From contig CAKTUI010000003.1 of NCBI GenBank assembly GCA_934621385.1, positions 17,998 through 81,997 of the forward strand: a stretch of 64,000 nt of DNA, in the 5' to 3' direction. Numbering within the stretch: the first letter of the stretch is position 1; every line of letters starts with the position of its first letter. Below are positions 24,766-63,228 of this stretch, piece after piece. Position numbers and translations under genes: made by a program. Below the pieces are notes generated by a model. The model was not told the origin of the DNA, ran no database searches, and was given only the letters and a program-made list of their open reading frames with translations. The DNA is from an uncultured Kiritimatiellota bacterium. Lineage in GTDB: Bacteria > Verrucomicrobiota > Kiritimatiellia > RFP12 > UBA1067.

Positions 24766-25184
24766 CCCTCGCCCCCTGTCTCGCCGCTCGTTCCAAGCAC
24801 TTCTTCCGACAAACTGTCAAGCGAGCCTTCTGGGAGGGAAGACATAAGCCGCTCAAAATCGGTTTCGAGTCCGGCCTTCTCACCCTCGCCAACTTCCACC
24901 CCCGACATTGCAGAGCGCAGTTCATCAAAATGAGACTTGAGCATCGTGCAAGACGTCGACATGGCATCGAGATATTCGTCCTTCGTCAACTTCGCGGCGA
25001 AGCGCGAATACATCCTGTCAACGCTGCAAACCTCGGGGCGATGATCGTATATGTCGCAGAGGTTGTCGCACGTAAGATGGACGCACACGCCATCGCCACG
25101 GTCGAAATGCTTGAGCTGCGGCACATTGCCTATGAGGCGGCAACACAATCCACAACGATCACATTCAAATCGCGGCGATGGCAT
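24762..25184 (-). CDS. YkgJ-family cysteine-cluster (zinc/iron-chelating) protein
   Basis: CDRCGLCC .. C-VHL-C .. CDIYDHRPEVC matches the UPF0153/YkgJ pattern. Acidic tail. Confidence 0.65.
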   Translation of the reverse strand: MPSPRFECDRCGLCCRLIGNVPQLKHFDRGDGVCVHLTCDNLCDIYDHRPEVCSVDRMYSRFAAKLTKDEYLDAMSTSCTMLKSHFDELRSAMSGVEVGEGEKAGLETDFERLMSSLPEGSLDSLSEEVLGTSGETGGEG

Positions 25185-25199
25185 GGTATCCTCCCCTGC

Positions 25200-25751
25200 T
25201 TATGCAGCAGCCCTCTTGAGATACTTGTTCGTCTCGAGGAGAACGTCCTCAGACTTGCTTGTGAGCGCACCCTTGTCGTCGAGCAACGCAGTGTCAAGGA
25301 TCGCTTTGACAGCCTGCGCCGTCGAAAGAAGAGCGGCCACACGCTTCTTCGATTCGGGCCTGTACTTGGCGAAGTCACAGCCCTCCATGTCGATGATGCT
25401 CTCGAAACTGTAGAGCTGCGGGAACATCAGCGCCTCAAGCTTGATCAGAACCTGCGTGAACAGGTCGGCGCGGCGCGTGATCGCATTGCAGGCCGTCACC
25501 ATGACATTGACCTCCGCCTCCGCCTCCTTGACCTTCGCGATCTCGCCGCCCAGGGCCTTCAGATCGTCGAAGCTGCCGCCCTCGGGGACCGTGACCTGCG
25601 GATAGGGCTTGCCCTTGAACTTCATCGTCACGTACTTCATGAACAGCAGCGAGAGGATGTAGTTCTTGTACTGCGACGGGTCCATGCCGCCGCGCAGCTT
25701 GTCGCAGCTCGCGTCCAGGGATGAATAGATTTCGTTCTTCTTGATAGCCAT
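25200..25751 (-). CDS. Stand-alone HsdM_N-like protein (N-terminal ~75 aa only) fused to unrelated sequence
   Basis: Start at ATG 25751. MAIKKNEIYSSLDASCDKLRGGMDPSQYKNYILSLLFMKYV matches the type I HsdM N-terminus. After ..DDLKALGG the similarity ends and there is no methyltransferase domain. Confidence 0.55.
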   Translation of the reverse strand: MAIKKNEIYSSLDASCDKLRGGMDPSQYKNYILSLLFMKYVTMKFKGKPYPQVTVPEGGSFDDLKALGGEIAKVKEAEAEVNVMVTACNAITRRADLFTQVLIKLEALMFPQLYSFESIIDMEGCDFAKYRPESKKRVAALLSTAQAVKAILDTALLDDKGALTSKSEDVLLETNKYLKRAAA

Positions 25752-25771
25752 GTTCGTGTTCCTCTCGTAAA

Positions 25772-27559
25772 TCAGTTTTTGGACCCCGCAGTTTCGGCGA
25801 AGCAGTCGGCCGCGTTCGTCGCCAAGATCGCCCCCAGCTCTTCCTTTGCCTGCCCGAGCCGCGTCCGAAGCTCGACCACGCGGCGAACCGCCTCGCGGCA
25901 CTTGTCTCCAATTTCCTTCTGCCGATCAAGCGGGAGAACAGGAATCGGCAGCATTTCCAAGCTCTTGTATTGCAGCGTCTTCACCATGTTCCCGACAGCC
26001 GAGTTCCGAAGATACCGCTGGGCGTACTCGTTCTCAAGGCAGGACTTGATGAAGTAGGGATCAGCCCGCGTCGGATCGACCGTCAAGACCAGAACGTTCC
26101 CGCCGGGCAGAAGCGTCTGCCCAGACGCCAATTCAGCAACGGCCACCTTGAAGACCGAGTTGTTCGCCATGACCCGCGTAATCAGCACATCACCATCATG
26201 AACACAATAGGACGCGTACTTTTCCGGCACTTCGGAAAGATTCATCAGCACGGCGTCTACCACGCCGTCATTGATGTTTCCCGACGAGACATACCGAATG
26301 CCCGTATCAGCATTCGACACCAAGTCATCAAGTTCCTTTGACGGGATCGCCGCACCGCGCTTCCCGACGCTGATCAACGCGGACAATTGAACACCCTCGC
26401 GGAGTGCCATCGGATCGGCAAAATGCCGCAAGACCGTCAGATTACACGTCTCGTCCAAGAGCGACTTCTTTTCGACCACCGCGCAGATCTCGTCATCGAG
26501 CGTCGTCCCCGTTCCGCTCTCCATGCTCCGCATGATTCTTGCAACGCCGCCGGTCGTGAGGGCATTGTTGCTGCGCCCCTTCTCGCAAAGGTTCCCCGCA
26601 CGGATCATCTTCACGGACTCATTGCCCTCGCTAAACACAACCATGTAGGTCGAAATGGAAGTGTTCGTGAAGAGCTTCGCCGGAAGCTCAATGATCGCCT
26701 CGACAAGATTGCGCTGGACGAAGTACCGGCGGAACGGTTCGGCCTGCTGCGTGTGCATGGCCGACGGCGGCAGAATCACCACGGCCCGTCCACCCGGCTT
26801 CATCGCGGCGACTGCGCGAGCGGCAAACAGCCAATCGCTGGCGGCCGACGGCGGGATTTCCGGGAAGTCAGGGAATGCCCTGCGGATGAACTCGCGGACG
26901 TTGTCCTGTTCCGGGAGACCGCGCACCGCAAACGGTGGCTGCGAAAAGACCTTGTCAAACTTGTCCTTCTCGTATGACTGCCCGAAGAAGTCATCCCAGA
27001 CGATCTGCACATCCGCATTGCAGCCATGCATGCTGATCTCTGCCAACGCCGCCAATTCGAGTTTCTTCTCATACCCGACGACGTTGCTCTTCTCACTCCC
27101 GGCTTTTACCTTGGACGCCGCCAGACGAATGAAGTCCCCCGTTCCACATCCGAGGTCCGCCACCGAATCGCCCTCGCCGATCCTCAAGACATCAGAGACC
27201 AGCTCCACGACGGGCAGAGACGAGCCCGATGTCTTGGCAAGTTCAAAACGCTCCCCGTTGACCGCCCTTGCGAAATAACCGCCGAACGAATCAACCGGGA
27301 ATGCTGTCAGGAGAGGAAGGTACTCGCCCCAGTGGTCGCCCAGTCGATTGCATATAAAGTCCGACAACTTCTCCGAAACGTGGCCAGCTGCGAGAAGCGC
27401 TTTCAGATCCGTCACCCCGCTGTAACGGGCAGCCAAGCAAAGAACATACGCTCCGCACACAACGGATGTATACGGTACTGCGGTATGCGCCCTCTCGACC
27501 ACCATCAGCGTGGTCTCGATCTTGTTCTGTATCTCACTCAGTTCTATCACAAAAATCAC
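25772..27559 (-). CDS. N6-adenine DNA methyltransferase fused to one HsdS-type target-recognition domain (no R subunit in window)
   Basis: 595 aa with a GTG start. Motif I is VADLGCGTGDF; motif IV is the non-canonical FSQPPFA. The C-terminal TRD plus conserved helix (GDVLITRV..LPIPVLPLDRQKEIG) is typical of HsdS halves. Confidence 0.75.
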   Translation of the reverse strand: MIFVIELSEIQNKIETTLMVVERAHTAVPYTSVVCGAYVLCLAARYSGVTDLKALLAAGHVSEKLSDFICNRLGDHWGEYLPLLTAFPVDSFGGYFARAVNGERFELAKTSGSSLPVVELVSDVLRIGEGDSVADLGCGTGDFIRLAASKVKAGSEKSNVVGYEKKLELAALAEISMHGCNADVQIVWDDFFGQSYEKDKFDKVFSQPPFAVRGLPEQDNVREFIRRAFPDFPEIPPSAASDWLFAARAVAAMKPGGRAVVILPPSAMHTQQAEPFRRYFVQRNLVEAIIELPAKLFTNTSISTYMVVFSEGNESVKMIRAGNLCEKGRSNNALTTGGVARIMRSMESGTGTTLDDEICAVVEKKSLLDETCNLTVLRHFADPMALREGVQLSALISVGKRGAAIPSKELDDLVSNADTGIRYVSSGNINDGVVDAVLMNLSEVPEKYASYCVHDGDVLITRVMANNSVFKVAVAELASGQTLLPGGNVLVLTVDPTRADPYFIKSCLENEYAQRYLRNSAVGNMVKTLQYKSLEMLPIPVLPLDRQKEIGDKCREAVRRVVELRTRLGQAKEELGAILATNAADCFAETAGSKN

Positions 27560-27578
27560 CTCTGTCGTTGTGGCGCAT

Positions 27579-27587
27579 AGTATATCA
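27579..27587 (-). promoter_or_regulatory. Extended -10 promoter (TGATATACT) at the head of the long minus-strand gene train
   Basis: Reverse complement of agtatatca, ~20 nt upstream of the GTG start at 27559. Confidence 0.45.
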
Positions 27588-27876
27588 CATTTTGCATTGC
27601 CGTGTCAATGGCTATGACTTGCAGATTGTAAAGCAATATAAATCATACATTTCAGTTCGTCGCATCTCAAAGGACAAACTTTTTCGGGACTGAACGCTTT
27701 TGGGCCTCGAAAAACGTGAGCGGAGGCCGGGGCTGCGACTTCAAATCGCTCCTTCGCCGTCACTTGAAAAGGCAAAGAAAGAGCGTTTTATGATAAAGAA
27801 TTGTGAAATAGACGGTTGCTATTCGCCCGACATTACGGCATCATGTCAACCGTTGAATCAAACTGGCGAAAAGGAC

Positions 27877-28323
27877 ATGAAAGTAGGCGAACAGCTCAAG
27901 CAGGAACTGGCCGAGTTGCAGGAACTTGACCCTGAAACGCTGCGTCGGAAATACTGTGAGCTAACGGGAGTGAATGCCGCCGTCTTTGGGGCGCGGTTCA
28001 TGCAAAGCCGTTGCGCTTACAGCATTCAGCAACGCACCTTGGGCGGATTAACCCCCGCTGAACTTGAAACCCTCGCCTACATTGCCAATCACGATCCGAA
28101 GACGAACAAGGAACTTCGAGACGCACCGCGCTCGGCAAAGGACAAACGCGGTGTCACGTACAGGCGCGAATATCACGGCAAGCTTTATGAAATGAAGTCG
28201 CTCGGAAACGGACGATACGAATACGAGTCGAAGATCTACACATCTCCGACAGCCGTCGTCCGCGCCATCACGGGCAAGAGCCACTACAACGGCGTCGTAT
28301 GGTGGGGCCTCAACCGGGGGTAA
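27877..28323 (+). CDS. DUF2924-family protein (recombinase-associated)
   Basis: Start at ATG 27877. LRRKYCELTG..YSIQQRTLGGL..REYHGKLYEM..YESKIYTSPTAVVRAITGKSHYNGVVWWGL is the DUF2924 pattern usually found upstream of large serine recombinases. Confidence 0.65.
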   Translation: MKVGEQLKQELAELQELDPETLRRKYCELTGVNAAVFGARFMQSRCAYSIQQRTLGGLTPAELETLAYIANHDPKTNKELRDAPRSAKDKRGVTYRREYHGKLYEMKSLGNGRYEYESKIYTSPTAVVRAITGKSHYNGVVWWGLNRG

Positions 28324-28342
28324 AACGAGAAAGGAGTTCAAA

Positions 28343-30079
28343 ATGAACCACGGGAAAACGATCCGAGTGGCGATTTACACGCGTAAGTCCGTCGAGGATT
28401 CAGAGGAAAAGCAGTTCAACTCCATCGATGCCCAGCGCCAGATGTGCGAGAGTTTCATCGCCGCCAAGGCGGCAGAGGGATGGATTGCCCTTCCCGAACG
28501 ATTCGATGACTACGGCTACAGCGGCGGCAATCTCGAACGCCCCGCCTACCAGCGGCTCATGGCGCAATGCGAACAGGGACTCGTCGACAAGATCATCGTC
28601 TTCCGAATCGACCGCATGACGCGCAGCACCAAGGACTTCTGCGAGTTCGACGAGAAGATGAAGAAGCTCGGAGTAGGATTCACCTCCGTCTCCGAGCCAT
28701 TTGTCGACACCTCCTCGCCGATGGGCGAGCTGGTCGTGAACCTTCTCGTCTCGTTCGGGCAATGGGAACGCAAGACGATTCAAGAGCGCATTCAAAAGCA
28801 CTTCAAGACCGCTCTCGACCAAGGCTTCTTTGTAGGCGGCATACCGCCCTACGGCTACAAGGTCGAGAACCAGACACTCATCCCTGACCCGAAGACGGCG
28901 CAGAACGTCCCACACATTTTCGAGTTGTTTGTCCAGCTCCATTCAGCGAAGAAGGTGGCGGCCAAACTCGCCGAGGAAGGCATCGAACGCTTCCCCGGAC
29001 GCGCCTGGACGACGCAGTCGGTCTACAATTGCCTTGGCAACGTCCGCTATGTCGGCGATGCCAACAGCCACGGCAAGATCGTCAAAGGCAAGCAACAGGC
29101 GCTCATCACACGCGAACTTTGGGAGCGTGTCCGCAACCTCGTCAACGCCGCCAAGGGCAGCCGCGAGAAGAAAGAGATGACCCCGGAGGCGGCCGTTTAT
29201 CAAGGTCTCATCTTCTGCGGCCATTGCCAGCATCCGATGTCCTACCGCTGGTCGAAGAAAGATACGCTCGGCGTTCGGAAATATCCCTACTTCATCTGCC
29301 AGCAAGATGCCCGCAAGGGTGTTTCAGAATGTCCGATCCGCCATGTCAGCGCAACAACCGTGCAGGAAGCAATCGAACAGGAACTCGAATCAATCATGAT
29401 GGCTTCTACAACGATGCTCGTCGCGGCGGCAAACGTCACCCCCTTCACGCCCGAGCAGATCGTCACGGGCTTTCGTCGCCACGGCTTCTGGCAACAGCTG
29501 TCGACGAACGACAGGAAGGCAATCTACCGTCTCTTCATCCGTTCCGTCACGGTGTTTGAATCGACACTCGACATCCGCGTCAAAATGCCGTGTGACGATG
29601 CGCGAAACGAACTTGTGAAGACTCTCTGCATCCCTGCGACGCCAACCAGCGAATTCGACACGCGCATCGATGCCGACGGATGCCTCTTCATGCGCATCCC
29701 GGTCGCCTTCCGAACGGTGTCCGGGCGCAAGAAGATCGTCCGCACGGACGGCGGCTCGGTCTCGCAGAGACCAACCCAGCACGAGATCAACAACACCCTT
29801 CTGCAGGGAGCGGTTCTCAAGGCAATTGCACGGGCATTCGCATGGTTGCGGCTTATCGACGAAGGCAAGGCGTCCTCCGTCCACGAACTGGCGGATCTCG
29901 TCGAGGAAGACCGCCACTACGTGCGCTATACGCTGCGCCTCGCGTTTCTTTCGCCCCGGATTATTCGCGCTGCGATGACCGGCGACCTGCCAAACGGTTT
30001 TTCGCTGGAGAAAGTCCGCAAGGTCGAAACCGACGATTGGGCAGAGCAGGAGCGGATTCTTGGATTTCCATCAACCTGA
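28343..30079 (+). CDS. Large serine recombinase (integrase)
   Basis: 578 aa. The resolvase-type N-domain has a catalytic Ser in VAIYTRKSVEDSE..SIDAQ. A recombinase domain and a Cys-containing zinc-ribbon region (FCGHCQHPM..FICQQD) follow. Confidence 0.85.
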   Translation: MNHGKTIRVAIYTRKSVEDSEEKQFNSIDAQRQMCESFIAAKAAEGWIALPERFDDYGYSGGNLERPAYQRLMAQCEQGLVDKIIVFRIDRMTRSTKDFCEFDEKMKKLGVGFTSVSEPFVDTSSPMGELVVNLLVSFGQWERKTIQERIQKHFKTALDQGFFVGGIPPYGYKVENQTLIPDPKTAQNVPHIFELFVQLHSAKKVAAKLAEEGIERFPGRAWTTQSVYNCLGNVRYVGDANSHGKIVKGKQQALITRELWERVRNLVNAAKGSREKKEMTPEAAVYQGLIFCGHCQHPMSYRWSKKDTLGVRKYPYFICQQDARKGVSECPIRHVSATTVQEAIEQELESIMMASTTMLVAAANVTPFTPEQIVTGFRRHGFWQQLSTNDRKAIYRLFIRSVTVFESTLDIRVKMPCDDARNELVKTLCIPATPTSEFDTRIDADGCLFMRIPVAFRTVSGRKKIVRTDGGSVSQRPTQHEINNTLLQGAVLKAIARAFAWLRLIDEGKASSVHELADLVEEDRHYVRYTLRLAFLSPRIIRAAMTGDLPNGFSLEKVRKVETDDWAEQERILGFPST

Positions 30080-30094
30080 CAAAGGAGAACTACG

Positions 30095-30412
30095 ATGAAG
30101 ATACAACGGAACCCCGAACGCATGATCGTCAACTGCGCGGCCCCAGTCGAGGTGGTCGCCAAGGTCAAAACAGCCATAGCCAGACGCATGGTCCCGACGT
30201 GGGTCAGACAAGGCCACAGGACGCACAACAAGATGCGCCCAATGGGGATTTCGACATTCTTCGTCGAGGCCGTAGCCAAGGCCGTTGAAGGCATCGTTCC
30301 CTCTCCAGAGAACGTCGAATGGGCAGAACGGATGATTGCCAAGGGTCGGGAAAATCACGCAATCGCGACGCGGGAACGGTGGGAGAAGCGCAGAGCCAAG
30401 CACAAGAAGTGA
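30095..30412 (+). CDS. Hypothetical basic 105-aa protein
   Basis: The ORF follows the recombinase by 15 nt and ends before a strong terminator. Confidence 0.4.
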   Translation: MKIQRNPERMIVNCAAPVEVVAKVKTAIARRMVPTWVRQGHRTHNKMRPMGISTFFVEAVAKAVEGIVPSPENVEWAERMIAKGRENHAIATRERWEKRRAKHKK

Positions 30413-30427
30413 CGGGCTTCGCAACGC

Positions 30428-30466
30428 AAAGCGGGACGTGTGCAACGACGCACACGCCCCGCTTTT
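30428..30466 (+). terminator. Intrinsic terminator
   Basis: GCGGGACGTGTGC-loop-GCACACGCCCCGC followed by TTTTCATTT. Confidence 0.7.
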
Positions 30467-30650
30467 CATTTCTCCATTGCAAATTCCGCATCTCCAAAAC
30501 GCCACTCGGGGGAGAAATTCGGGAGGGGGAAACGGAGAAAACGATCATACCCCCCCTTTCTCCCGTCCCCCTCTGGAGAAATCACCCCCTCCCGCTTCCA
30601 ACTCCAAACACCCCCGTAAATTGGGCATTTTCCGCGCACTCCCCAACCCC

Positions 30651-30682
30651 AACAGAAAAGGGAGAAGCGCACTTCTCCCTTT
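30651..30682 (-). terminator. Intrinsic terminator downstream of tRNA-Val
   Basis: Minus-strand AAAGGGAGAAG-UGCG-CUUCUCCCUUU followed by UCUGUU. Confidence 0.6.
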
Positions 30683-30695
30683 CGCTGTCTGTTAG

Positions 30696-30772
30696 TGGTG
30701 GACGATGAGGGACTCGAACCCCCGACCTTGACCGTGTAAAGGTCCTGCTCTAACCAACTGAGCTAATCGTCC
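30696..30772 (-). tRNA. tRNA-Val (anticodon TAC), CCA encoded
   Basis: 77-nt cloverleaf read by hand: GGACGAT/ATCGTCC acceptor, GCTC..GAGC D arm, anticodon loop TTTACAC, T arm GGGGG-TTCGAGT-CCCTC. Confidence 0.9.
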
Positions 30773-36569: not shown

Positions 36570-36575
36570 GCCCAT

Positions 36576-36584
36576 ATTATACCA
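36576..36584 (-). promoter_or_regulatory. Extended -10 promoter (TGGTATAAT), leaderless configuration
   Basis: Reverse complement of attatacca. The hexamer ends 7 nt before the ATG at 36569. Confidence 0.5.
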
Positions 36585-36829
36585 TAGATTGCGCGAAGGT
36601 CACCGTTCCTTGTTAAAGTCGGAAATTGTAAAATCGAATGAGTCACCCAAGCGAAGTGAAAAGTGCCGCGCCTGCGGCCATCTACGATCGCATTGAGACG
36701 ATGAGCGCATTCGCCCACGCCCTCATAAGCGAACGATTCATCCGCTGAACGCACGATTTCAACGCATAAAAGGCTTCTCGACGCATACCAACAGGTATGG
36801 CCCAGACGCGGCGAAGGCAACCGCCACGT

Positions 36830-36935
36830 TTCTCATGCCCAGCGGCGGCAGACTTACTGCCCAGTAAATCAAAACTTACTGCCCAGTAAGTCTAAAGTTA
36901 CTGCCCAGTAAGTCTCCGTCCGATGGGCACGGCAA
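36830..36935. repeat. Palindrome-array element, copy 1 (three ACTTACT-GCCC-AGTAAGT units inside an outer inverted repeat)
   Basis: Units lie at 36852-36867, 36874-36891 and 36897-36913. Flanks are ATGCCCAGCGGCGGCAG and CTCCGTCCGATGGGCAC. Same scaffold as 44317-44427. Confidence 0.8.
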
Positions 36936-37023
36936 TTTCGCGCCGTCCGCATCTCTCGAACGGACCGTCGGCAGGTGCGCCCTCCGCCCTCCTCACTTCC
37001 CCTCTCAGTTCGCGGCACTTTTT

Positions 37024-37032
37024 TGGTATAAT
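37024..37032 (+). promoter_or_regulatory. Extended -10 promoter (TGGTATAAT), leaderless configuration
   Basis: The hexamer ends 7 nt before the ATG at 37039. Confidence 0.5.
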
Positions 37033-37038
37033 GTCCGC

Positions 37039-37962
37039 ATGGTTTTTGCCGCGCTTATGCTCTGCGCCTCACTGGCGTTCTCCGAATCGAAGACGCTCGC
37101 CGTCCAGATTCGGCTGGACAGGCTTGGCTACTCCTGCAACACGATTGATGGGCAGTGGGGGCGCAAGTCCCAATCCGCCCTCGAACGCTACTGCGCCGAC
37201 CGCAAACTGCCGCTGCCGGCCACCCCCGAAGAGGCCTACGACCGTTTCTTCTCCGTTGGGAGCCGCCTTTTCCGGCAGGACGAGGTTTCGTCCGCCGATC
37301 TTGCCGCGCTCGTCTCCATTCCTACTGACCCCGCCGAAAAGTCCAGGCTCGTCCATCTCGGCTACGAATCCATCAAGGAGGCATTCGCCGAGCGCGGTCA
37401 TGTCAGCCGGCGGACGATTGAGCGGCTGAACCCAGGTCTCAACTGGGAGAAAATCCGCCCGGGGACGCGCATCACCCTCCCGGACTTCAGGAAAATGGCG
37501 GACGACCTTGCCGCCGGAACGCGCACCCTGCCAGGGGATGCCACGCGTCCAGAGGCGACGCTCGTCAAGATTTCCCTCTCCAAGTTCGAAATCGCCGCGT
37601 ATGACCGCAGCGGCACGCTGCTGGGGCTCTTCCCCTGCTCCATCGCAAAGGACAAGTCCAAAGCCCCCAAGGGAGAGCTCAAAATCGTCTCGCTCGTCCC
37701 CAATCCTAACTACACCTATACGCCCGACCATACGCCGCCTGGCGCAAAACGGTCTCGCTATATGTTCATGGATGGCCCGAACAATCCCGTGGGGGTCGCC
37801 TGGCTCGGACTCTCCCTCCCGGGCTACGGCATCCACGGCACACCCATCCCCGAGCGCATCGGCCGCGCCGAATCGCACGGATGCTTCAGGCTGTCGAACT
37901 GGAATGCCGCACGCCTCTACTCGCTTTGCCGCATCGGAACACGCGTCATCATCGAGCCGTAA
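37039..37962 (+). CDS. L,D-transpeptidase (YkuD domain) with peptidoglycan-binding-like N-terminal domain
   Basis: HGTPIPERIGRAESHGCFRL catalytic motif. The N-terminal part LDRLGYSCNTIDGQWGRKSQSALERY is PG_binding_1-like. Confidence 0.8.
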   Translation: MVFAALMLCASLAFSESKTLAVQIRLDRLGYSCNTIDGQWGRKSQSALERYCADRKLPLPATPEEAYDRFFSVGSRLFRQDEVSSADLAALVSIPTDPAEKSRLVHLGYESIKEAFAERGHVSRRTIERLNPGLNWEKIRPGTRITLPDFRKMADDLAAGTRTLPGDATRPEATLVKISLSKFEIAAYDRSGTLLGLFPCSIAKDKSKAPKGELKIVSLVPNPNYTYTPDHTPPGAKRSRYMFMDGPNNPVGVAWLGLSLPGYGIHGTPIPERIGRAESHGCFRLSNWNAARLYSLCRIGTRVIIEP

Positions 37963-44064: not shown

Positions 44065-44316
44065 CTGTTTCGTCCTTCCATCTGTCAGAAAATCGGCATA
44101 TTTTACTCTTTTCGGCGGCTAAAAGTCAATGCCGCCCCGAGAAGAATTGCGCGGAAACCGCGCAAGAGTCGAGCCAACCCATTCCGTGATTTCCGCAAAC
44201 GCCGCGCGTTTCTTCACCGCACCATCCGGTCCGATTCGGCACGCGGCAACACGCTTGTCGGCAGGACGGAACACGGACAAGCCGACGCCCGATTCAAGTC
44301 CTGCCCATCAGCGCAG

Positions 44317-44427
44317 ATTCTCGTGCCCATCGGACGGAGACTTACTCTATGAGTAAATCAAAACTTACTCATAGAGTAAGTCCAAAGTTACTCATAGAGT
44401 AAGTTTCTTTCTGATGGGCACGAGAAT
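44317..44427. repeat. Palindrome-array element, copy 2 (three ACTTACT-CATAG/CTATG-AGTAAGT units inside an outer inverted repeat)
   Basis: Outer IR is ATTCTCGTGCCCATC .. GATGGGCACGAGAAT. The scaffold (AGACTTACT..AGTAAATCAAAACTTACT..AGTAAGTC.AAAGTTACT..AGTAAGT) is nearly identical to copy 1, but the unit centres differ. Confidence 0.8.
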
Positions 44428-44656
44428 TCCAGGCGATACCGACACCGCGCCGCCGGGATGCGCAGGAGAGTCCCATCTACAGCCTTTCTCTCGGCAAAAT
44501 GACAAGAACAAGAGAAAAATGTGACACTTTCAAGAGAAATCCCTCATCGGCAACGGAAAGCGGGGCACTGCTCACGTCGGGAATGCCGCTTCTGATGGTC
44601 TATGTCCGCGACAGGAATGCGCCGAACGATGACGCGTGGACAGTCGACGCGAAAGA

Positions 44657-55734: not shown

Positions 55735-56826
55735 TTAAGCCATCGCTCCGTCAATAACTGCGCGAAAAGCGCGATGAAATACTGCGGGCGAAAAGCGGGC
55801 CGCATTTTCCCGACAATCCTCCGCCTTCCACCGCTTCGCCTCAAATTCCTCCATCGCCTCGCACAGCGAGTCAACGGACTGCTGCCGGAAGAAAAGACCC
55901 GTTTCTCCAGCGACGACCGTCTCCCGCGCACCACCCACACCGTAGGCGATGACGGGCGTACCAGCCGCCTGCGCCTCAAGCGGGACAATACCGAAATCCT
56001 CCACTCCCGGAAAGAGGAGGGCGCGAGCCTCGGTATAAGCACGGCGCAAATCCTCATTGCTGACGCGTCCAAGGAATTCAATGTTGGGGCTCCCCTCCGC
56101 CAAGGCCCGCAAGTGCTCAATCTGCTCACCCGAACCGACAATCTTCAACTTCCGATTCATCTTCAGACAGGCCAAAAGCGCGATGTCGGGGCGTTTGTAG
56201 GAAACAAGCTGTCCCGCCAGAAGATAGCCGTCCCCCCGCGCATCAGAAATAGAGTGCGAGAAGAAGTCAAAGTCCACCATCGGATAGACGACCTCGGCCA
56301 AACGCCCGTAGATGCGCTGAATACGCTCGGCGACAAAGTGCGAATTCGCGACAAACACATCGACCGAATCGGCACTCTTCAGGTCCTCGCGCCGCAAGTA
56401 GTCACGAAATATCCGCATGGCGATTTTGCCACTCACCCCCGCCATGCGGTAGTAGTCCTCGTACAAATCCCACAGATAGCGCATCGGCGTATGACAGTAG
56501 CAGATATGCCGCGCCCCCCTTGGCTTGCGAACACCTTTAATCGGCCCTGACTCACTGGAAATGATGAGGTCATAACCATCAAGTTTCAGAGACCGACTCG
56601 CAAGCGGCATCAGCGGCAAATACGCCTGACACTTCGTTCGGGCGAACGGCAACCGACCAATGAACGACTCGGTCACACGCCGCCCGCCAAACCATTCATC
56701 CATCACCCATGCATTGTAGGCGTGAGTGAAAATATCCCCCTGGGGGAACATTCCGCAGATTTCGCGGAAGACATTCTCTCCGCCGCGCCGATTCGTCAGC
56801 CAGTAGTGCAAAAGTGCCGTCTTCAT
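55735..56826 (-). CDS. Glycosyltransferase family 4
   Basis: EDFGIVPLEAQAAGTPVIAYGVGGARETV is a GT-B C-terminal motif. Confidence 0.75.
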   Translation of the reverse strand: MKTALLHYWLTNRRGGENVFREICGMFPQGDIFTHAYNAWVMDEWFGGRRVTESFIGRLPFARTKCQAYLPLMPLASRSLKLDGYDLIISSESGPIKGVRKPRGARHICYCHTPMRYLWDLYEDYYRMAGVSGKIAMRIFRDYLRREDLKSADSVDVFVANSHFVAERIQRIYGRLAEVVYPMVDFDFFSHSISDARGDGYLLAGQLVSYKRPDIALLACLKMNRKLKIVGSGEQIEHLRALAEGSPNIEFLGRVSNEDLRRAYTEARALLFPGVEDFGIVPLEAQAAGTPVIAYGVGGARETVVAGETGLFFRQQSVDSLCEAMEEFEAKRWKAEDCRENAARFSPAVFHRAFRAVIDGAMA

Positions 56827-56827
56827 T

Positions 56828-57871
56828 TTAAGTTCTCCTCATGAGGCAGTCTTCGTAAATCGCCCGCGTTTTTGAAACCATCTGATCAACTGAAAATTCC
56901 GTATTCACGCGAGCGAACAAGGCCGCCCCATAGCGAGCAACTGCCTCATCCGAATAATCAACGCGCAACAATTCGGCCAAAGCATCAACATTTTCAACAG
57001 GAAACAAGAGACCCGAACTACCGTCCTCAATGATGTCGCGATTGCCGGGGCAGTCGGACGCAATGACAAACTTCTTTCGCCGTCCAGCCTCGCAAAGCAT
57101 CAGCGGAAGGCCCTCCCACCGACTCGGGGCAATCACAATACGCCCACGCATCATGCAAGAAACCGCCTCTGGAATTTCACCTGCAAATACTACCAAATCC
57201 CCAATGCCCAGCACTCCAGCAAGTTCTTGCATCGCCTGAAACGTCTCGCCACCACCAATCAGCAGTGTCCGCCATCGACGCGCACGTAACTCGGACTGCA
57301 CCTTTGCAATCGCCCGCAACAAGACATCCTGTCCTTTTGGAAAATTAAAGCGTGCAATAGATATAAAAGCGTATCCACCCTGGCCAACCAATGCAGAGTC
57401 CCCCTCTCCATAAGCACACGACTCGGCCACGCCATTCGGAACAACGCAAACCCGCGTCTGAATATGATAAACGCGCAACAATGAGTCCGCATCCGTTTTC
57501 GTAAGAGCAATGATCCGAGCACACCTTCGATAAAGAAGTCGCTCCAGCATCAATCTCAGCGAGCGACGCACAAAGTTCGCCACCGTTTTCGGCAGAAAGT
57601 CATACTTACGCAGATGAATGCCGTGAACGGTGAAGACGATGGGGGCACACGGATGCCGCCAAGGACATTTGAAAAGTTGCACTAAGGCCCGCAAATGGTT
57701 AACATGAATGATGTCAGGATGCCACGCGTTGATAACCCGCGCCGAACATTCGCCACGCACCGAATAGAAGACGCGGCTTTCACAGGATGAACCAAGCCCC
57801 TCGGTCAACTGCCGCACATATTCGCACCCGCCACCAACAGTCGGTGCATCAAGCAAAAAGGCAATTCTCAT
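56828..57871 (-). CDS. Glycosyltransferase family 4
   Basis: GT-B layout; SRWEGLPLMLCEAGRRKKFVIASDCPGNRDII. Confidence 0.7.
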   Translation of the reverse strand: MRIAFLLDAPTVGGGCEYVRQLTEGLGSSCESRVFYSVRGECSARVINAWHPDIIHVNHLRALVQLFKCPWRHPCAPIVFTVHGIHLRKYDFLPKTVANFVRRSLRLMLERLLYRRCARIIALTKTDADSLLRVYHIQTRVCVVPNGVAESCAYGEGDSALVGQGGYAFISIARFNFPKGQDVLLRAIAKVQSELRARRWRTLLIGGGETFQAMQELAGVLGIGDLVVFAGEIPEAVSCMMRGRIVIAPSRWEGLPLMLCEAGRRKKFVIASDCPGNRDIIEDGSSGLLFPVENVDALAELLRVDYSDEAVARYGAALFARVNTEFSVDQMVSKTRAIYEDCLMRRT

Positions 57872-57878
57872 AAATGGC

Positions 57879-59423
57879 TTAATCGTGATAAAGCCGAACA
57901 GGCATCCGACTCATGCCAATAGACTCCAAAATATAGTTGATCGTTTTCGATCGCACAGCCTTCGTCGCCATCCAGGACCACAGGATGCGTGGGTAGGTCG
58001 GAACCCAGTAGATCTTCCGCAAAAATCGAATCTTTCGGAATGCAACGGTCAGAAACTTTGTCGGCGTTGAATAAGCCTCTCTTGAGACAAGGTAATAGCC
58101 ATATTTTAGGATATTCTCATTCTGTGGACAGGCGAAAGACGGCCCGGTGAGATCTTGCAACAGTTCACCTTCAGTTCGCGGCGTATGGCAAAAACCGAGA
58201 CGGTAATAAAGCGACGCGCCAAGTAGGATAACCGACTTGCCCCAGTAGGCCGCCTCGGCCCCCATTGTCGAACCAAAGACAACCACCTTGTCCGCCGCTT
58301 GCATGAGATCGTATGTACTGTGATTGGATGTCGCGGGGAGAACTGTCAGATTAGAATATCGCTTGGGAAGTTCGTAAAGATCCGTATGATAAGTAAACTT
58401 TAATTTCCCGAGGTTTGGATGAACCCGAAGATAGACATGATAATCAGGACGATTGGCAAGCAACTCGCAAATCTTTGAGACTCCCTCCAATTGCGAACGA
58501 AACAACGAAAAACTATCAAACTTCGGATCGATTGAAGAGTACTCGTCCTCCGAACTGTTGAAAATCGCAATGTTCTTCTTCTTTGGATTCCAATCCTCCG
58601 GCATTTGCCCAGTCTTTTGCCCTTGGATAAATGTTCGCTGTTGTCCAGGATTCCATGCATCACCAGCCGGGACACCTCCACGCCTTTTTTCGTAAAACCG
58701 CCGTGCAACTCGTCTCTTCTCGTTAAGGCCAACGCCCTCCTGCGCCCAAAGGCATTCTGCAATCCGTTCATTTTCGTCAACATCGTGTGGAAGACAGTTC
58801 GGATAGACAATGCGTCGATAGATTTGCTCGCCAGATAGGCCTTGAACCAAGACGATTTCATTGCTCCGCATTTCAATGGATCCGATCCGGGCAAGATCAA
58901 GAAATGGACGAGCCTCCAACATTCGCCCATTATAAAGCGACAGGCAATCTGGATTGACAGACTCTACGGTAGCAGCCGCCAGATCGGCCATCCGAACGGC
59001 CTCTGACAGAAGAAAATCCATGTAGGCACGTTTTCTTGCCGTAAAGACCTCAATCAACTCCCGTGTCCAAGAGATGTAACTGGACAAGACACCATACCCA
59101 ATATTGATTCCGTGATAGTCAATGCTCTTGATATCAGATAAGGAGTTATACTGAAATTGGGCGACAACCCCTCGCCCTTGATGTTTCAATGGCAACAACT
59201 TCACACCCGGCAAAAGTTTCTTGAGATAGCGCCGTTGATAAAAGCGACAAACGAGGCAAGCAAGACGACTACCCAACGGATTATTGCAACAAACACGACA
59301 AGCACCGTCGCAATAGGCAAAGAAGACCTCATTCCCTTCAGCCAGTGATGACAAGGCCTCATCCACCATGATACGCCACGAAGGTTCCTGGAGGAACGAA
59401 GTTCCAATAACCAAATGTCTCAT
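57879..59423 (-). CDS. Capsule-biosynthesis-family-like protein (Capsule_synth-type)
   Basis: Start at ATG 59423 (ATGA overlap with the Wzx stop). Cys-rich N-terminus; C-terminal half YLRVHPN..VVVFGSTMGAEAAYWGKSVILLG. Low GC. Confidence 0.4.
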   Translation of the reverse strand: MRHLVIGTSFLQEPSWRIMVDEALSSLAEGNEVFFAYCDGACRVCCNNPLGSRLACLVCRFYQRRYLKKLLPGVKLLPLKHQGRGVVAQFQYNSLSDIKSIDYHGINIGYGVLSSYISWTRELIEVFTARKRAYMDFLLSEAVRMADLAAATVESVNPDCLSLYNGRMLEARPFLDLARIGSIEMRSNEIVLVQGLSGEQIYRRIVYPNCLPHDVDENERIAECLWAQEGVGLNEKRRVARRFYEKRRGGVPAGDAWNPGQQRTFIQGQKTGQMPEDWNPKKKNIAIFNSSEDEYSSIDPKFDSFSLFRSQLEGVSKICELLANRPDYHVYLRVHPNLGKLKFTYHTDLYELPKRYSNLTVLPATSNHSTYDLMQAADKVVVFGSTMGAEAAYWGKSVILLGASLYYRLGFCHTPRTEGELLQDLTGPSFACPQNENILKYGYYLVSREAYSTPTKFLTVAFRKIRFLRKIYWVPTYPRILWSWMATKAVRSKTINYILESIGMSRMPVRLYHD

Positions 59424-60661
59424 CTTGCGACCTCCTTGAGTAACTTCAATCCATAGCAAAGGCGAACGACTAACTCAACCGCCATTGACAACATATTCGC
59501 CCAGGCCGCCCCCCAAAGCCCAAACCTTGGGATAAGAACGGCATTGAAGGCAATGACACTACCAACCGCCCAAAGCGAACTATAAAAGAAATACTTACTT
59601 TTTCGCGAAGCCGCATACAAGGCTCCAATGGAACCAGCCAACACCGAGAATCCCGCTCCAAGCGAAAGCAATGGAATAAACTTCGAAACCGAATAATATT
59701 CTGGCCCAACAAGAAAACGCATGAAAAAGGTCGAACCAACCGTTAATACCAATACAACTGCAATGACACCGCAAGCCAAAATGCCAAAGAAACTCCAAAA
59801 ATACCTGACAAATCCAGGCTCCCGATACTCTTCGAGAACCGAAATCTGCCACGCATTCCCTATGACGCTCCACCCCACACCTAAGATAGAGGGCAATTTG
59901 ATGGCCGCCGCGTAAAAACCCACAGCAGCAAGCGAACAATACCTTTCAAGAAAAGGACGATTGAGTCCCGTCAAGGCCCACCACATAACGGCTGTTGGCA
60001 CCAGCGGAATCGCATATTTCAACAGGTTGACAAGACTTGCCCGCGAAAAGGCCCCATGTCGGAAATAGTGCCATAGACGCGCCCCCAACAACGAGATGAC
60101 AATTCCTCCTGCAAAACCTGCGCACTGAATAAGTCCCAATACGCGCCCGGTGGGATAGGCGGGGATAAGCCAGATAGAAAGCAACACGACAATCAGCGTC
60201 AATCCCAAACCCGAAAGCGCATAGGTGACCATTCGGTCTACCGCACGGCAAAATTGCTGAAGATACTGGTGCAGACCATTCAAGAACAAGACACTAACAA
60301 TCAAGCCACTGTATTGACGAAAAAAAGCCCCCCGCGAGAAGAATCCACTGACGACGAAGATGCCAAGCCCACAAACGATATAACTCCCCAGCAAAAAAAC
60401 AAGCCCAGAGGAGAAATGTTGCTGCTGACGGGAATAGGTCTCTCCCTTGGGGAAGACAAAAACAGCGTCCTGTATCTGGCACGTCACCAAGCCAAGAAGC
60501 ATCGTCGCATAGGTGACAATCAAGTCTGACACGCCGTACTCAGTTGGTCCAAGATACCGTGTATAAAAAGGCAACATCAGGAACAAAAGCAATTTGCTTC
60601 CCGCGTTCCCGACAAAGACAATTCCCGTGTTCTTTAAAAGCCGCGTATACTTATTCGCCAT
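59420..60661 (-). CDS. wzx: Polysaccharide/O-antigen flippase (Wzx, MOP family)
   Basis: Start at MANKYTRLLKNTGIVFVGNAGSKLL; ~12 TM helices. Confidence 0.6.
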   Translation of the reverse strand: MANKYTRLLKNTGIVFVGNAGSKLLLFLMLPFYTRYLGPTEYGVSDLIVTYATMLLGLVTCQIQDAVFVFPKGETYSRQQQHFSSGLVFLLGSYIVCGLGIFVVSGFFSRGAFFRQYSGLIVSVLFLNGLHQYLQQFCRAVDRMVTYALSGLGLTLIVVLLSIWLIPAYPTGRVLGLIQCAGFAGGIVISLLGARLWHYFRHGAFSRASLVNLLKYAIPLVPTAVMWWALTGLNRPFLERYCSLAAVGFYAAAIKLPSILGVGWSVIGNAWQISVLEEYREPGFVRYFWSFFGILACGVIAVVLVLTVGSTFFMRFLVGPEYYSVSKFIPLLSLGAGFSVLAGSIGALYAASRKSKYFFYSSLWAVGSVIAFNAVLIPRFGLWGAAWANMLSMAVELVVRLCYGLKLLKEVAR

Positions 60662-62276
60662 ATTTCCGATTGCGTCTCGAAAGGATCCACAGCAACAGGA
60701 CAAGACCCAAAAGCCAAAAGAGGATCAACCCCTGACGTACGCTCCGCCAAGGCCAAAGCATCAGACCATAAAGTAGCGTATAGCTATAGACAATCTTCAA
60801 AAGGTTATAGGCAAGCGTCCCTGGACTCATAAAAGCGAAGACCAAGCCCGCGGCCAAAGCCATCACAATACAGAACAACATCGCTCCCCATTGAGGATAA
60901 TCCAGAACAATGTGGCCAACCATCGTCTTAAATTCGCCCGAATAGCAATCAGCAAGTTCACGATAGATCGATCGCGGCCATTCGTACGGATTGGCGAGAT
61001 GAAGTCCTGTATAGACTTCTTTCGCCGTTTGCGTCATGCTCGTGCCAGCAACAAGATCGACAACCTTAACAACAGGGCCCAGGGTTAGCGCCCCACGCAA
61101 ACATGGCAAGCCCTTCTCATATCGTGCAACATAATCCGCATTGAATGAATAGGCCCCCGTGCAAAAATATGAAAAAGAGCTATAAAACAAGCCTTCCTTG
61201 TTACTCCCCTTCGCGACAACCGTCCTCATCGATCCGCCATCTGTTCTGACCTTGCCGTCCTTCTTCGCGACGACTGGCTTCGTCGTTCCGTTGCCTGCAA
61301 CAGCCTTGCCGTCCTTCTTCACGACGACTGGCTTCGTCGTTCCGTTGCCTGCAACAGCCTTGCCGTCCTTCTTCACGACGACTGGCTTCGCCGTTCCGTT
61401 GCCTGCAACAGCCTTGCCGCTCTCCTGCACGACGACTGGCTTCGCCGTTCCGTTGCTTGCGATGACCTTCTTATATTCCAAGGGAGCCAATGCGGGCACG
61501 AAACGTAGCACCGTAATCAAGACAAACGGCAACACCGTAACAGACAGGAAACAAACCATTTCCGGACGAAAAAAAATACGCACGAACCATAACCGCCCAC
61601 ACTGACCAAAAGAGGAGCCAAGCACAACAACTGCAAGCCCATAGAAAAAGACCATTTGAAACGCAACATTCCGGGCAACTATGGAATACGACCAAAAGGC
61701 TGGCGCCAATCCCCCAATACAAAGAAGAACATTTACGAATCTAAACCGAGAGAAGTGCACCAGTCCAACCGCCGCAAGGAAAAGTGCGCAATAGGAAAAA
61801 CTCTCCAAGATGAAGCACAATTCCTGTACGCCCCCAACTTCCTTTATCGCATATGCACGACGATATGCCTCTCGCGACATTCCCGATGTTGCATAGGTAT
61901 ATAATCCCTTTACTCCAATCCACAAATCATACAAGGACACAGGAAGCGTCACAACAATTAATGCAGTCGACAGGACAAGGAACATTCGGGTGGACAACTC
62001 GCACGGAGGGCCCGACTTTGCCCTCTCTCGTTGCCGCTTAACAAACAGTAGAGGCAGACATAAAATGCCGTAGGCCACTCCAAAGAATACCATCGCCGAC
62101 AGACTGACAAAGGGGCGCCCGCTTCGCGGATGAAGGTGAAGGAAGACTGCACACAGGAAATTAAGCGCAATCACTCCAAGCGTAAAGATTGACAACAGAC
62201 TTGTCTTGGATGCCCGTGCTATCACCAGGACCAAGAGTATCGTAATGAGACAAAAGGGAATCGCCTGATACCACAT
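60651..62276 (-). CDS. Polytopic membrane protein, O-antigen polymerase-like, with an internal 18-aa tandem repeat
   Basis: Start at MWYQAIPF (TGATG overlap with the epimerase stop). More than 10 TM helices. Loop with GKAVAGNGT(A/T)KPVVVKKD repeated. Confidence 0.4.
   Translation of the reverse strand: MWYQAIPFCLITILLVLVIARASKTSLLSIFTLGVIALNFLCAVFLHLHPRSGRPFVSLSAMVFFGVAYGILCLPLLFVKRQRERAKSGPPCELSTRMFLVLSTALIVVTLPVSLYDLWIGVKGLYTYATSGMSREAYRRAYAIKEVGGVQELCFILESFSYCALFLAAVGLVHFSRFRFVNVLLCIGGLAPAFWSYSIVARNVAFQMVFFYGLAVVVLGSSFGQCGRLWFVRIFFRPEMVCFLSVTVLPFVLITVLRFVPALAPLEYKKVIASNGTAKPVVVQESGKAVAGNGTAKPVVVKKDGKAVAGNGTTKPVVVKKDGKAVAGNGTTKPVVAKKDGKVRTDGGSMRTVVAKGSNKEGLFYSSFSYFCTGAYSFNADYVARYEKGLPCLRGALTLGPVVKVVDLVAGTSMTQTAKEVYTGLHLANPYEWPRSIYRELADCYSGEFKTMVGHIVLDYPQWGAMLFCIVMALAAGLVFAFMSPGTLAYNLLKIVYSYTLLYGLMLWPWRSVRQGLILFWLLGLVLLLWILSRRNRKYGE
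61251..61466. repeat. Four tandem copies of a 54-bp repeat inside the polymerase-like gene
   Basis: Copies of cttgccgtccttcttcacgacgactggcttcgtcgttccgttgcctgcaacagc lie at 61251, 61305 and 61359; the copy at 61413 is diverged. Confidence 0.85.
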
Positions 62277-63214
62277 CACCGCATCACCTCCTTCGCCCAC
62301 GCAACCATCTGGCGAATCCCAGTCTTAAAATCCGTCTCCGGCCTCCACCCGAAGGCCTGCTCAATCGTTGAGAAATCCCCATAGATACCATGCTGGTCAC
62401 CTGGCGTCCCCGCGACATAATCAACACGGACATGGTCACCAATGTTTGTGCAGATCTGCGCTATCACCTCTTCAACGGTCGTTGGAATTCCCGTACAAAC
62501 ATTATACGTATGGTACCCGTACCCTTTCTCTGCGGATAAAAGAACGGCCCGCACAACATCCGTCACGTTCACAAAATCACGGAATCGATCCTTCGCGCCC
62601 TTGACGATGATATGCCGATCCTTGAGCGCCATCGCCAAATAAATGCTTGCCATCCCCTGCTTCAAGTTATCAAGATTCTGCCCTATTCCATAGACATTAA
62701 AGAATCGAAGAGCCGTACAATGGATGCCGAACATCGAACTAAAGATGCGCATATAATTCTCACTCGCCAGCTTCCCAACGGCATAGAAGCTCTTGGGTGT
62801 CGTTTTCGTCTCCTCACAAACCTTTGGATTCTCCGGGTGATCCCCGTAAACAGACATACTTGAAGCGTAAACGAACTTGGTGCACCCCGTATTACGGGCA
62901 AGATTCAGCAAAAGCAAGGTCGACTGTGCATTTGTCTGCAAATCATAAACAGGATCCTCAAAACTAATCTCGCCCGAACTCTGCCCCGCAATATGAATGA
63001 TGGCATCGAACTTGACACTTCTAAGTTCCTCAATTATTGCTGCATCCTGGACATTCCCATGAATAAACCGACATCCCGGCGGAACAACGTCCCTTTTCCC
63101 CGTGGACAAATTATCAATCGTGATCACTTCATGCCCCAGATCCAACAAGGCCCGAGCAACACACGATCCAATAAACCCAGCCGCGCCAGTGACCAAATAC
63201 CTCTTTTGTTCCAT
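62276..63214 (-). CDS. NAD-dependent sugar epimerase/dehydratase (extended SDR)
   Basis: VTGAAGFIGS, SSMSVYG, YAVGK. Confidence 0.8.
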   Translation of the reverse strand: MEQKRYLVTGAAGFIGSCVARALLDLGHEVITIDNLSTGKRDVVPPGCRFIHGNVQDAAIIEELRSVKFDAIIHIAGQSSGEISFEDPVYDLQTNAQSTLLLLNLARNTGCTKFVYASSMSVYGDHPENPKVCEETKTTPKSFYAVGKLASENYMRIFSSMFGIHCTALRFFNVYGIGQNLDNLKQGMASIYLAMALKDRHIIVKGAKDRFRDFVNVTDVVRAVLLSAEKGYGYHTYNVCTGIPTTVEEVIAQICTNIGDHVRVDYVAGTPGDQHGIYGDFSTIEQAFGWRPETDFKTGIRQMVAWAKEVMR

Positions 63215-63228
63215 TTGAAACTACCTCC

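Follow-up and report, generated by a model that had tools for sequence, protein, structure and literature searches.

What is the 111-bp near-palindrome at positions 44317-44427 of the window, a stretch of 64,000 nucleotides from contig CAKTUI010000003.1 of an uncultured Kiritimatiellota bacterium: a mobile element, a structured RNA, a set of operators, or a repeat of another kind? An initial annotation had described it as the second copy (copy 2) of a palindromic scaffold whose first copy (copy 1) lies some kilobases upstream, with the same arms and exchanged unit centers, and had suggested a specificity-determining loop, concerted conversion or a miniature inverted-repeat transposable element (MITE). 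We find that copy 2 is one member of a lineage-specific hairpin repeat family of an uncultured gut Verrucomicrobiota species. On how the family works, the reading that we favor, and to which we lend roughly even credence, is that of a lineage-specific mosaic hairpin repeat that acts and spreads via single-stranded DNA, and that is like the repetitive extragenic palindromes (REP) and bacterial interspersed mosaic elements (BIME) in its working and like BOX in its architecture.

Copy 2 was checked by direct sequence reading and by alignment with copy 1, and the two scaffolds align almost base for base, as had been claimed. Three 19-bp palindromic units succeed one another at a 23-bp period within an outer inverted repeat, confirmed at 15 bp. 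From left to right the order is ATTCTCGTGCCCATC, GGACGGAG, unit 1, CAAA, unit 2, CCAA, unit 3, TTCTTTCT and GATGGGCACGAGAAT, with the following parts:

44317-44427, plus strand (units 1 to 3 read on plus): the whole palindromic array; an inverted-repeat search gives arms of 54 nt each (44317-44370 and 44374-44427), 83% complementary; nhmmer E=7e-27; RNA fold -74.4 kcal/mol, z=-15.
44317-44331: left arm of the outer inverted repeat, ATTCTCGTGCCCATC, with the core TGCCCATC kept in 17 copies.
44332-44339, plus strand: left linker GGACGGAG, variable among copies (linker pairwise difference 0.29), with 4 of 8 bases unlike the ortholog described below.
44340-44358, plus strand: unit 1, ACTTACT-CTATG-AGTAAAT, with a C.A mismatch (a G.T wobble on the other strand).
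44363-44381, plus strand: unit 2, ACTTACT-CATAG-AGTAAGT, with perfect 8-bp arms, the tip of the long hairpin.
44386-44404, plus strand: unit 3, AGTTACT-CATAG-AGTAAGT, with a G.G mismatch.
44405-44412, plus strand: right linker TTCTTTCT, pyrimidine-rich, pairing in part with the left linker via G.T.
44413-44427: right arm of the outer inverted repeat, GATGGGCACGAGAAT, placed by sequence, inverted-repeat search and the 17-copy alignment.

Tandem Repeats Finder reports a period of 23 × 2.8 at 44340-44404 for copy 2 and of 22 × 2.9 at 36852-36915 for copy 1. The pattern ACTTACT-N3-7-AGTAAGT has two perfect matches in the window (0.00 expected from 100 shuffles), and nhmmer with the family profile finds exactly two arrays within its 64 kb. 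Several details of the initial annotation were borne out: the 7-bp arms are constant in both window copies, the center of unit 1 in copy 2 is the reverse complement of the centers of units 2 and 3, and the closing pair, G:C in copy 1, is C:G in copy 2, so that pairing is preserved, here and family-wide. The units are AT-rich in a genome of ~59% GC. Copy 2 lies between divergently transcribed genes, hom (identified with Pfam) and a gene of 436-454 aa. The description of this other neighbor as flippase-like was not confirmed, as it has no Pfam match.

The family was delimited by scanning an exact scaffold 18-mer against one genome per species (185,579 species). This returned 21 loci, all of them in a single metagenome-assembled genome (MAG), Verrucomicrobiota bacterium CM_BacUBA_137.30; the 43 other genome matches are single, without context and in unrelated taxa, which is chance level. 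Over 8 kb the MAG is ~95% identical to the window, and its locus L047 is the ortholog of copy 2. Besides the window's two it gives 15 distinct arrays, which on partial data makes at least 17 arrays and 51 units and confirms the suspected dispersed repeat family. Many MAG contigs end inside an array, as would be expected of identical repeats that exceed the assembly k-mer in length. No match to the family pattern appeared in two JGI metagenome scans, one viral scan, or plasmid and phage searches. Identical hom or NTP-transferase proteins occur in further assemblies, more than 126 of them for hom, among them Hadza stool metagenomes; these assemblies appear to be human-gut samples. In all, ~230 kb of lineage sequence was covered, less than 10% of the genome; genes in the MAG loci were called with our own codon-usage caller, trained on the supplied calls, which it reproduces. 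All 17 arrays are intergenic. Their neighbors are unrelated housekeeping genes, for which reason paralogous neighbors were rejected as the source of the shared flanks.

Aligning the 17 distinct arrays allowed us to ask which parts are conserved. Mean pairwise difference is 0.002 for the arms and spacers (0.0037 over the 32 columns that played no part in retrieving the copies), 0.04 for the outer repeat, 0.29 for the linkers and 0.74, which is saturation, for the inner centers of 2-3 nt. The X module, a sequence physically linked to ten arrays, differs by 0.25. Each unit, 18-19 bp long, has an AT-rich 8-bp stem and a 2-3-nt loop, and its eighth stem position shows G-C/C-G covariation in all three units (8/8/1, 8/7/2 and 9/7/1, the last figure in each case counting exceptions), while the C.A mismatch of unit 1 and the G.G mismatch of unit 3 are invariant across the family. 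Center length is 4 or 5 nt, at times mixed within one array (L032, L034), a variation that would be tolerable for a loop and not for a dimer on duplex DNA. The three tiers, a sequence-bound stem, a pairing-bound stem top and a free loop, are what one would expect if a sequence-specific protein reads a hairpin, and are poorly explained by a dimer on duplex DNA.

The centers themselves turn over rapidly. They had been described as uniform within a locus, but only 2 of the 17 arrays are so, or 3 of 17 if a flipped center is counted: three identical centers occur in window copy 1 and L008 only, and in window copy 2 only if the flip is allowed. Mixed sets are exemplified by L010 (GAGC/GGGC/CTTG) and L027 (GCGC/CCTG/CCCG). 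Tabulated across the family the cores are therefore non-concerted, the outcome that the initial annotation had said would refute it, yet there is an excess of identity within arrays, with identical centers at 29% within against 12% between arrays (permutation p=0.0004). Concerted conversion thus survives as some within-array homogenization and fails as a rule. For a specificity-determining loop we find nothing in favor, the inner center being saturated and freely flipped. For ten of 13 non-self-complementary center types, the reverse complement is found at another place in the family (null 2.9, p ~0.0009); therefore, loops flip. Between L013 and L053, 8 of 12 center positions differ and 0 of 66 positions in the arms, spacers and outer repeat (p=2e-8). 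For window copy 2 and L047, its ortholog, the count is 6 of 15 center positions versus 1 of 66 of the others (p=1e-4), with a parallel 1-nt indel in each of the three centers; third codon positions around the two loci are, for comparison, 10-13% different. The centers thus change far more quickly than the sequence around them. Any two units are direct as well as inverted repeats of each other, with 18 identical nt on each side of each loop, and therefore template switching or short-patch conversion could flip or swap loops tracelessly. The minimum-energy fold has units 1 and 3 paired with each other and unit 2 at the tip, and copy 2 is a near-perfect long hairpin because its unit 1 center is the reverse complement of its unit 3 center. 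As a selected structure this long hairpin was rejected, since the two centers are so related only in copy 2 and L053.

Variation in unit number and in array occupancy is also seen among strains, for which 19 orthologous loci were obtained by exact-protein look-ups. Two units instead of three are present in L065 and L071 at one window locus and in L080 and L083 at the other, with exactly one 22-23-bp period lost each time. In six strains an A-to-G change in a unit 2 arm keeps a G.T wobble on the hom-sense strand only. L066 is without a 149-bp block, 44317-44465, comprising the array and a 38-nt module, and the 6-bp direct repeat GCGCAG found at the block's edges is single in that strain. Because flanking SNPs group L066 with array-bearing strains, and because the MAG outgroup has the array, this is probably a loss, either by excision or by palindrome-stimulated slippage. 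Two further look-ups for new insertions in other strains across the window gave contigs, with no new arrays in them. The flanks concerned are:

44299-44311, plus strand: an extra partial outer-repeat motif, TCCTGCCCATCAG, just outside the array and complementary to 44411-44423 (92%).
44311-44316, plus strand: the left copy of GCGCAG, bounding the presence/absence block, with the right copy at 44460-44465; once in L066, twice in the other strains.
44428-44465, plus strand: the right-hand module with a ATGCGCAG motif, lost along with the array in L066.
44466-44559, plus strand: further flank, 75% homologous to the flank of MAG copy L020 and hence part of a mosaic repeat region.

The mosaic extends to the family as a whole. 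Ten arrays have the non-coding X module of ~150-170 nt on one side, and at least four kinds of module occur on the other. The flanks hold TGCGCA motifs and further palindromes, TTCYGATG-SS-CATCRGAA, the halves of which equal the array outer repeat; this second palindrome family (8-bp arms, CC/GG center, both orientations) was seen beside arrays at L020:4260-4340, L026:3800-3830 and L010:4870-4990. To the right of the arrays in L024, L025, L026, L027, L041 and L048 lies a module with three (GA)TGCGCACG motifs ~20-24 bp apart; in L026, for example, it takes up the ~80 nt that follow the array. The ATGCGCAG motif of the right-flank module also forms the right edge of the block missing in L066 (window 44458-44465). 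In one sub-family a ~170-nt core is identical at seven or more contig ends while the adjoining modules differ by 8-15%, which points to recent conversion or transposition of the core. The MITE-like element that had been proposed holds only loosely: terminal inverted repeats are there, but no direct repeat abuts the outer-repeat ends in any of the copies, all of which were inspected for a target-site duplication. No transposase adjoins the arrays, either in the window or among the neighbors in the MAG loci, and as to a parent insertion sequence (IS), no pair of matching ends 0.7-3 kb apart was found in the ~230 kb of lineage sequence.

The arrays are also consistently oriented; this orientation, the mosaic context and the strain variation in unit number had all escaped the initial annotation. 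Almost all genes on the unit 1 side run on the strand opposite to the array (17/18 of first, 15/16 of second and 12/14 of third neighbors), array orientation in co-directional gene contexts is 11:0, and arrays lie upstream of gene starts in 17/18 cases. Replication direction was inferred from base composition and not from a mapped origin. Gross 8-kb GC skew proved insufficient as a proxy, for in the window it follows gene strand; as this holds for the genome, four-fold degenerate-site skew was used, split by gene strand. The strand that reads from unit 1 to unit 3 is C-rich by this measure in both gene-strand classes (-0.147 and -0.092), with an intergenic value of -0.078, and its skew is negative in 19 of 22 loci, L025 being the one clear exception. 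Leading strands are usually G-rich, from which it follows that the complement of the unit 1-to-3 strand would be the lagging-strand template. This complement is the sense strand of ~80% of neighboring coding sequence, and the X module folds far better on it (-33.0 vs -17.8 kcal/mol), with many G.U pairs. It is on this strand, too, that the unit 2 arm change of six strains keeps its G.T wobble. Such polarity is typical of elements that are processed in single-stranded form at the replication fork, and is equally compatible with selection on the transcribed strand. In the IS200/IS605 family, hairpin-recognizing Y1 transposases are coupled to the lagging-strand template (PMC6006769).

For the favored reading, a hairpin repeat working through single-stranded DNA, the following mechanism is proposed. 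The units would fold as hairpins in the single-stranded DNA of the replication fork, the folding strand being the putative lagging-strand template and, for most neighboring genes, the sense strand too. A trans-acting protein, possibly a Y1/HUH enzyme, would read the stem sequence, and such a stem-reading protein would account for stems and spacers that are invariant, a closing pair that only needs to pair and a loop that is free. The family would have spread and been homogenized via single-strand-based mobilization and gene conversion, while template switching and recombination between identical arms would yield loop flips, loop swaps and the gain or loss of units.

Comparison with known systems places the family closest to repeats of this sort without matching any. 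REP families have stems of 6-13 bp and loops of 2-5 nt, are clustered and in mosaic context, and occur in Verrucomicrobia (Opitutus terrae) (PMC3733652). The arrays, with 8-bp stems and 2-3-nt loops in multiple extragenic copies, fall within that description and are like REP, BIME and REPIN sequences in being short, species-specific extragenic hairpins of high copy number in mosaic intergenic clusters (PMC3733652, PMC6006769), as well as in their compensatory stem changes, loop variants, unit-number variation and presumed single-strand DNA route. BIMEs are mosaics in which REPs alternate in orientation, with conserved non-REP motifs between them; in the arrays, a mosaic with conserved modules (X, the four or more right-hand kinds and the TTCYGATG-SS-CATCRGAA hairpins) is present. 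Unlike REP and BIME, the units stand head-to-tail at a fixed 22-23-bp period and not as inverted doublets, their orientation being defined only by the two invariant mismatches; a GC-rich inverted repeat closes the array at both ends, and the stem sequence is invariant, without compensatory sub-families. In BOX, complementary ends enclose central modules whose number varies (boxA-boxB(n)-boxC) (PMC3049150). In the arrays, likewise, complementary end modules (outer repeat and linkers) clamp independently folding tandem modules whose number varies between strains, three or, in the four strains named above, two; both kinds of element are intergenic, often clustered with other repeats, and without a clear target-site duplication. 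The likeness is architectural only, as BOX differs in phylum and base composition and no sequence similarity is expected. BOX modules, of 45-59 nt, are not palindromes each with a hypervariable loop, and BOX ends, unlike those of the array, resemble the ends of ISSpn2. To our knowledge, no replication polarity has been reported for BOX.

The non-autonomous derivatives of IS200/IS605 known as PATEs (palindrome-associated transposable elements) share hairpin recognition, the lack of a target-site duplication and a strong replication-orientation bias via the lagging-strand template (PMC6006769). The arrays have the same orientation bias, in 19/22 loci and independent of gene strand, and no duplication at their ends. 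PATEs differ in having distinct left and right subterminal hairpins, no terminal inverted repeat and no tandem unit array, and are further marked by fixed cleavage tetranucleotides and a cognate TnpA; the mosaic leaves the array ends undefined, with GCGCAG at both edges of the single excision-like event. Neither TnpA nor TnpB was found near the arrays, and having no Rfam match, the arrays have none to any omega/re-RNA family that Rfam may hold. The array arms contain TTAC, the IS608 target tetranucleotide, which may be a coincidence. Finally, Correia/NEMIS (Neisseria), RUP (S. pneumoniae) and ERIC repeats are alike in being 100-150 bp long and intergenic, with terminal inverted repeats, one long hairpin and presence/absence among strains. 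In these repeats a defined duplication (TA) flanks the ends, and the parent IS families can be identified. We know of no tandem palindromic sub-units in them, nor of a pattern of invariant stems and saturated loops. The array family thus belongs to no named family, yet it is not categorically new.

Several observations weigh against a REP-like repeat working through single-stranded DNA. First, no Y1/RAYT (REP-associated tyrosine transposase) or other transposase was found in ~230 kb (the window and 21 MAG loci), a small fraction of the genome searched with an approximate tblastn query; the sole weak match to the approximate RAYT query, in a 429-aa open reading frame (ORF), was judged by eye to be unrelated to RAYT. 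In a REPtron, the repeats flank such a cognate RAYT (Y1/HUH) gene. Second, known REP superfamilies are defined by a GTAG (GT[AG]G) or CGTC tag at the hairpin foot (PMC3733652, PMC6006769), and neither GTAG nor CGTC is present in any of the 17 copies, where the unit flanks read ..GAG|ACTTACT, AGTAAAT|CAAA, AGTAAGT|CTAA and AGTAAGT|TTTC and the outer repeat begins CGTG. Third, with ~80% of neighboring coding sequence on the putative leading strand, replication polarity is inseparable from transcription co-orientation. Fourth, neither strand of the array is favored in folding energy (mean difference 0.1 kcal/mol; 10 vs 7), and its wobble pairs are split between the strands (36 vs 31). Fifth, the gap in L066, a strain nested among array-bearing strains, may be a slippage deletion between chance 6-bp repeats instead of an excision, and homology to L020 continues past the boundary of the deletion. 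Lastly, a duplex-DNA-binding host protein could be what keeps the arms invariant.

Of the other explanations, the one that survives best is an RNA-level element, which we hold to be unlikely. The array and X would be transcribed as 3' or 5' untranslated or inter-cistronic RNA, and the hairpins would serve as stabilizers, RNase III/E targets, attenuators or insulators. The orientation bias would then reflect selection on the transcribed strand, the opposite orientation placing the U-rich right linker (UUUUCUU) right after the hairpin, in terminator-like fashion. This fits the single orientation relative to transcription in co-directional contexts, where arrays lie 166-514 nt past the upstream gene's stop codon, the far better and G.U-rich fold of the X module on the sense strand, and the invariant C.A of unit 1, which becomes G.U on that strand. 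Folds are also very stable, on either strand, at -50 to -74 kcal/mol with z=-8 to -15 for the two window copies and -43 to -74 kcal/mol across the family, and RNA effects of REP, ERIC, Correia and BOX repeats are documented (PMC3049150). Yet both window copies and four other arrays lie between divergent genes, where no upstream gene reads in, and a search for promoter-like sites that could start a transcript of its own found none. For RNA, a 2-nt loop on an 8-bp stem is sterically unfavorable, and an invariant stem without compensatory variation would be unusual for a purely structural one. The equal stability of the two strands speaks against it as well, and an attempt to read the RNA strand from array thermodynamics or wobble pairs was abandoned for lack of bias. 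A known structured RNA family was rejected: with Rfam 15, only two tRNAs pass gathering thresholds in the window, copy 1 has no match at E<=10, and copy 2 at E<=10 matches only generic long-hairpin miRNA models, far below threshold (29.5 vs 90 bits).

Two further possibilities are each more doubtful still. The first is a host-selected, replication-oriented signal, in which lagging-strand-template hairpins would be read by a putative fork-associated or single-strand-DNA-binding enzyme and in which stems held invariant, with loops rewritten continuously through hairpin-templated switching, would make up a rapidly evolving per-locus 'barcode'. The arrays would then be more than selfish repeats; if true, this would amount to a new type of REP-like system, without a GTAG/CGTC tag and with triple-hairpin arrays. 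The second is an array of duplex binding sites, three palindromic operators about two helical turns (22-23 bp) apart for a host dimer, such as a nucleoid-associated or chromosome-organizing factor or a global regulator. Purifying selection on binding would keep half-sites and spacers while the uncontacted center drifts. The invariance of arms and spacers in 17 copies, against 25% divergence of the linked X module, the 22-23-bp period, the AT-rich units in a GC-rich genome and the position upstream of gene starts all fit such operators, and replication polarity would suit a chromosome-organizing signal. Against them, a half-site spacing that switches between 4 and 5 nt even within one array amounts to ~36 degrees of rotation, and the G-C/C-G covariation of the closing pair has no rationale if a dimer tolerates either base. 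The units always lie inside a GC-rich inverted repeat and among other palindromes in a mosaic, the neighboring genes are functionally unrelated, and identical cores at several loci together with presence/absence polymorphism speak of repeat dynamics and not of fixed operators.

A classical MITE, an IS deletion derivative with terminal inverted repeats CGTGCCCATC... moved by a trans-supplied DDE transposase via cut-and-paste, is very improbable: the terminal inverted repeat of 10-15 bp, the size of ~100-150 bp, the intergenic, multicopy and identical copies and the one empty site with a 6-bp direct repeat are what it would predict, but no direct repeat, and no duplication of constant length, abuts the inverted-repeat ends, GCGCAG encloses an extra asymmetric 38-nt module, no full-length element with array ends occurs in ~230 kb, strong replication polarity is unexpected for cut-and-paste MITEs, adjacent modules are shared beyond the repeat ends, and the empty-site strain is nested among filled strains. 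Nor does the IS remnant that the initial annotation had linked to the array through a shared 9-mer help this explanation. The 9-mer is present at 6927-6935, at chance frequency (9 matches at <=1 mismatch vs 6.6 expected), and the link was rejected, the local ORF having only sub-threshold DruA/DDE_Tnp_1_assoc matches.

Copy 1 and its linked modules are as follows:

36836-36929, plus strand: copy 1 array, with outer repeat TGCCCAGCGG / CCGATGGGCA, units at 36852-36869, 36874-36891 and 36896-36913, and GCCC in all centers.
36678-36845, minus strand: the X module linked to copy 1, ~150-170 nt, common to nine MAG arrays at ~75% identity, non-coding, with the better fold on the minus strand.
36930-37039, plus strand: the right-hand module of copy 1, also in MAG copies L008, L031 and L032.
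36573-36603, minus strand, and 37020-37041, plus strand: -10 boxes, TATAAT-ATGGGC-ATG and TATAAT-GTCCGC-ATG.

A small ORF in the X module was rejected as coding, the apparent 35-aa frame of copy 1 being broken by stops and frameshifts in L032 and L053. In the X module, in the window as in nine MAG loci, a hairpin GATGGGCACGG...CCGTGCCCATC re-uses the outer-repeat arm of the array, so that the arm can pair either across the array or within X, in mutually exclusive helices. The arrangement is attenuator-like, but without a following U-run. An extended -10 box (TGGTATAAT) precedes each of the two genes beside copy 1 and ends ~6 nt ahead of the ATG, which suggests leaderless mRNAs; a similar TGGTATAAT is found near 6975-6985 of the window. 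Terminator-like hairpins at 36665-36678 and 44147-44165, both on the minus strand, lie just upstream of the NTP-transferase-gene and hom promoters, between repeat region and promoter, and could insulate the NTP-transferase gene and hom from transcription leaving the repeat.

Elsewhere in the window, an integrative element of lower GC (~0.55-0.58) occupies 22000-30772 and adjoins a tRNA at 30699-30772. Its genes encode a large serine recombinase (28343-30079: Resolvase, Recombinase, Zn_ribbon_recom), DUF2924, a type I restriction-modification methylase (HsdM/N6_Mtase) and an FtsK/SpoIIIE-like protein; the same block is found at a second locus in the same sample, beside luxS (L085), and appears on these grounds to have been recently active as a mobile element. 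At its edge lies a 2516-aa ORF (13799-21349, minus strand) with a TEN_YD-shell (Rhs/teneurin-like) domain, which may be a polymorphic toxin. An AT-rich island at 8000-14000 (GC 0.44-0.49 vs ~0.60), with a SMEK-domain protein (10040-11071) and a weak-HNH ORF (11400-12539), looks horizontally acquired or defense-type by its composition and content. The ORF at 6144-6845 beside it has sub-threshold DruA/DDE_Tnp_1_assoc matches only. A minus-strand cluster of lower GC (0.48-0.54) at 56000-64000, with genes for glycosyltransferases, a Polysacc_synt flippase and epimerases, is probably a locus for variable surface polysaccharides.

Small palindromic repeats have been thoroughly characterized in proteobacteria and streptococci and hardly at all in gut Verrucomicrobiota. 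The clean three-tier pattern of the present family makes it a natural test case for hairpin-repeat recognition and for the rewriting of palindromes by template switching, and its replication polarity points to single-stranded DNA biology, an idea that can be tested. In practical terms the arrays break short-read assemblies, and strain differences in unit number, occupancy and loops may serve as strain-typing markers for this lineage.

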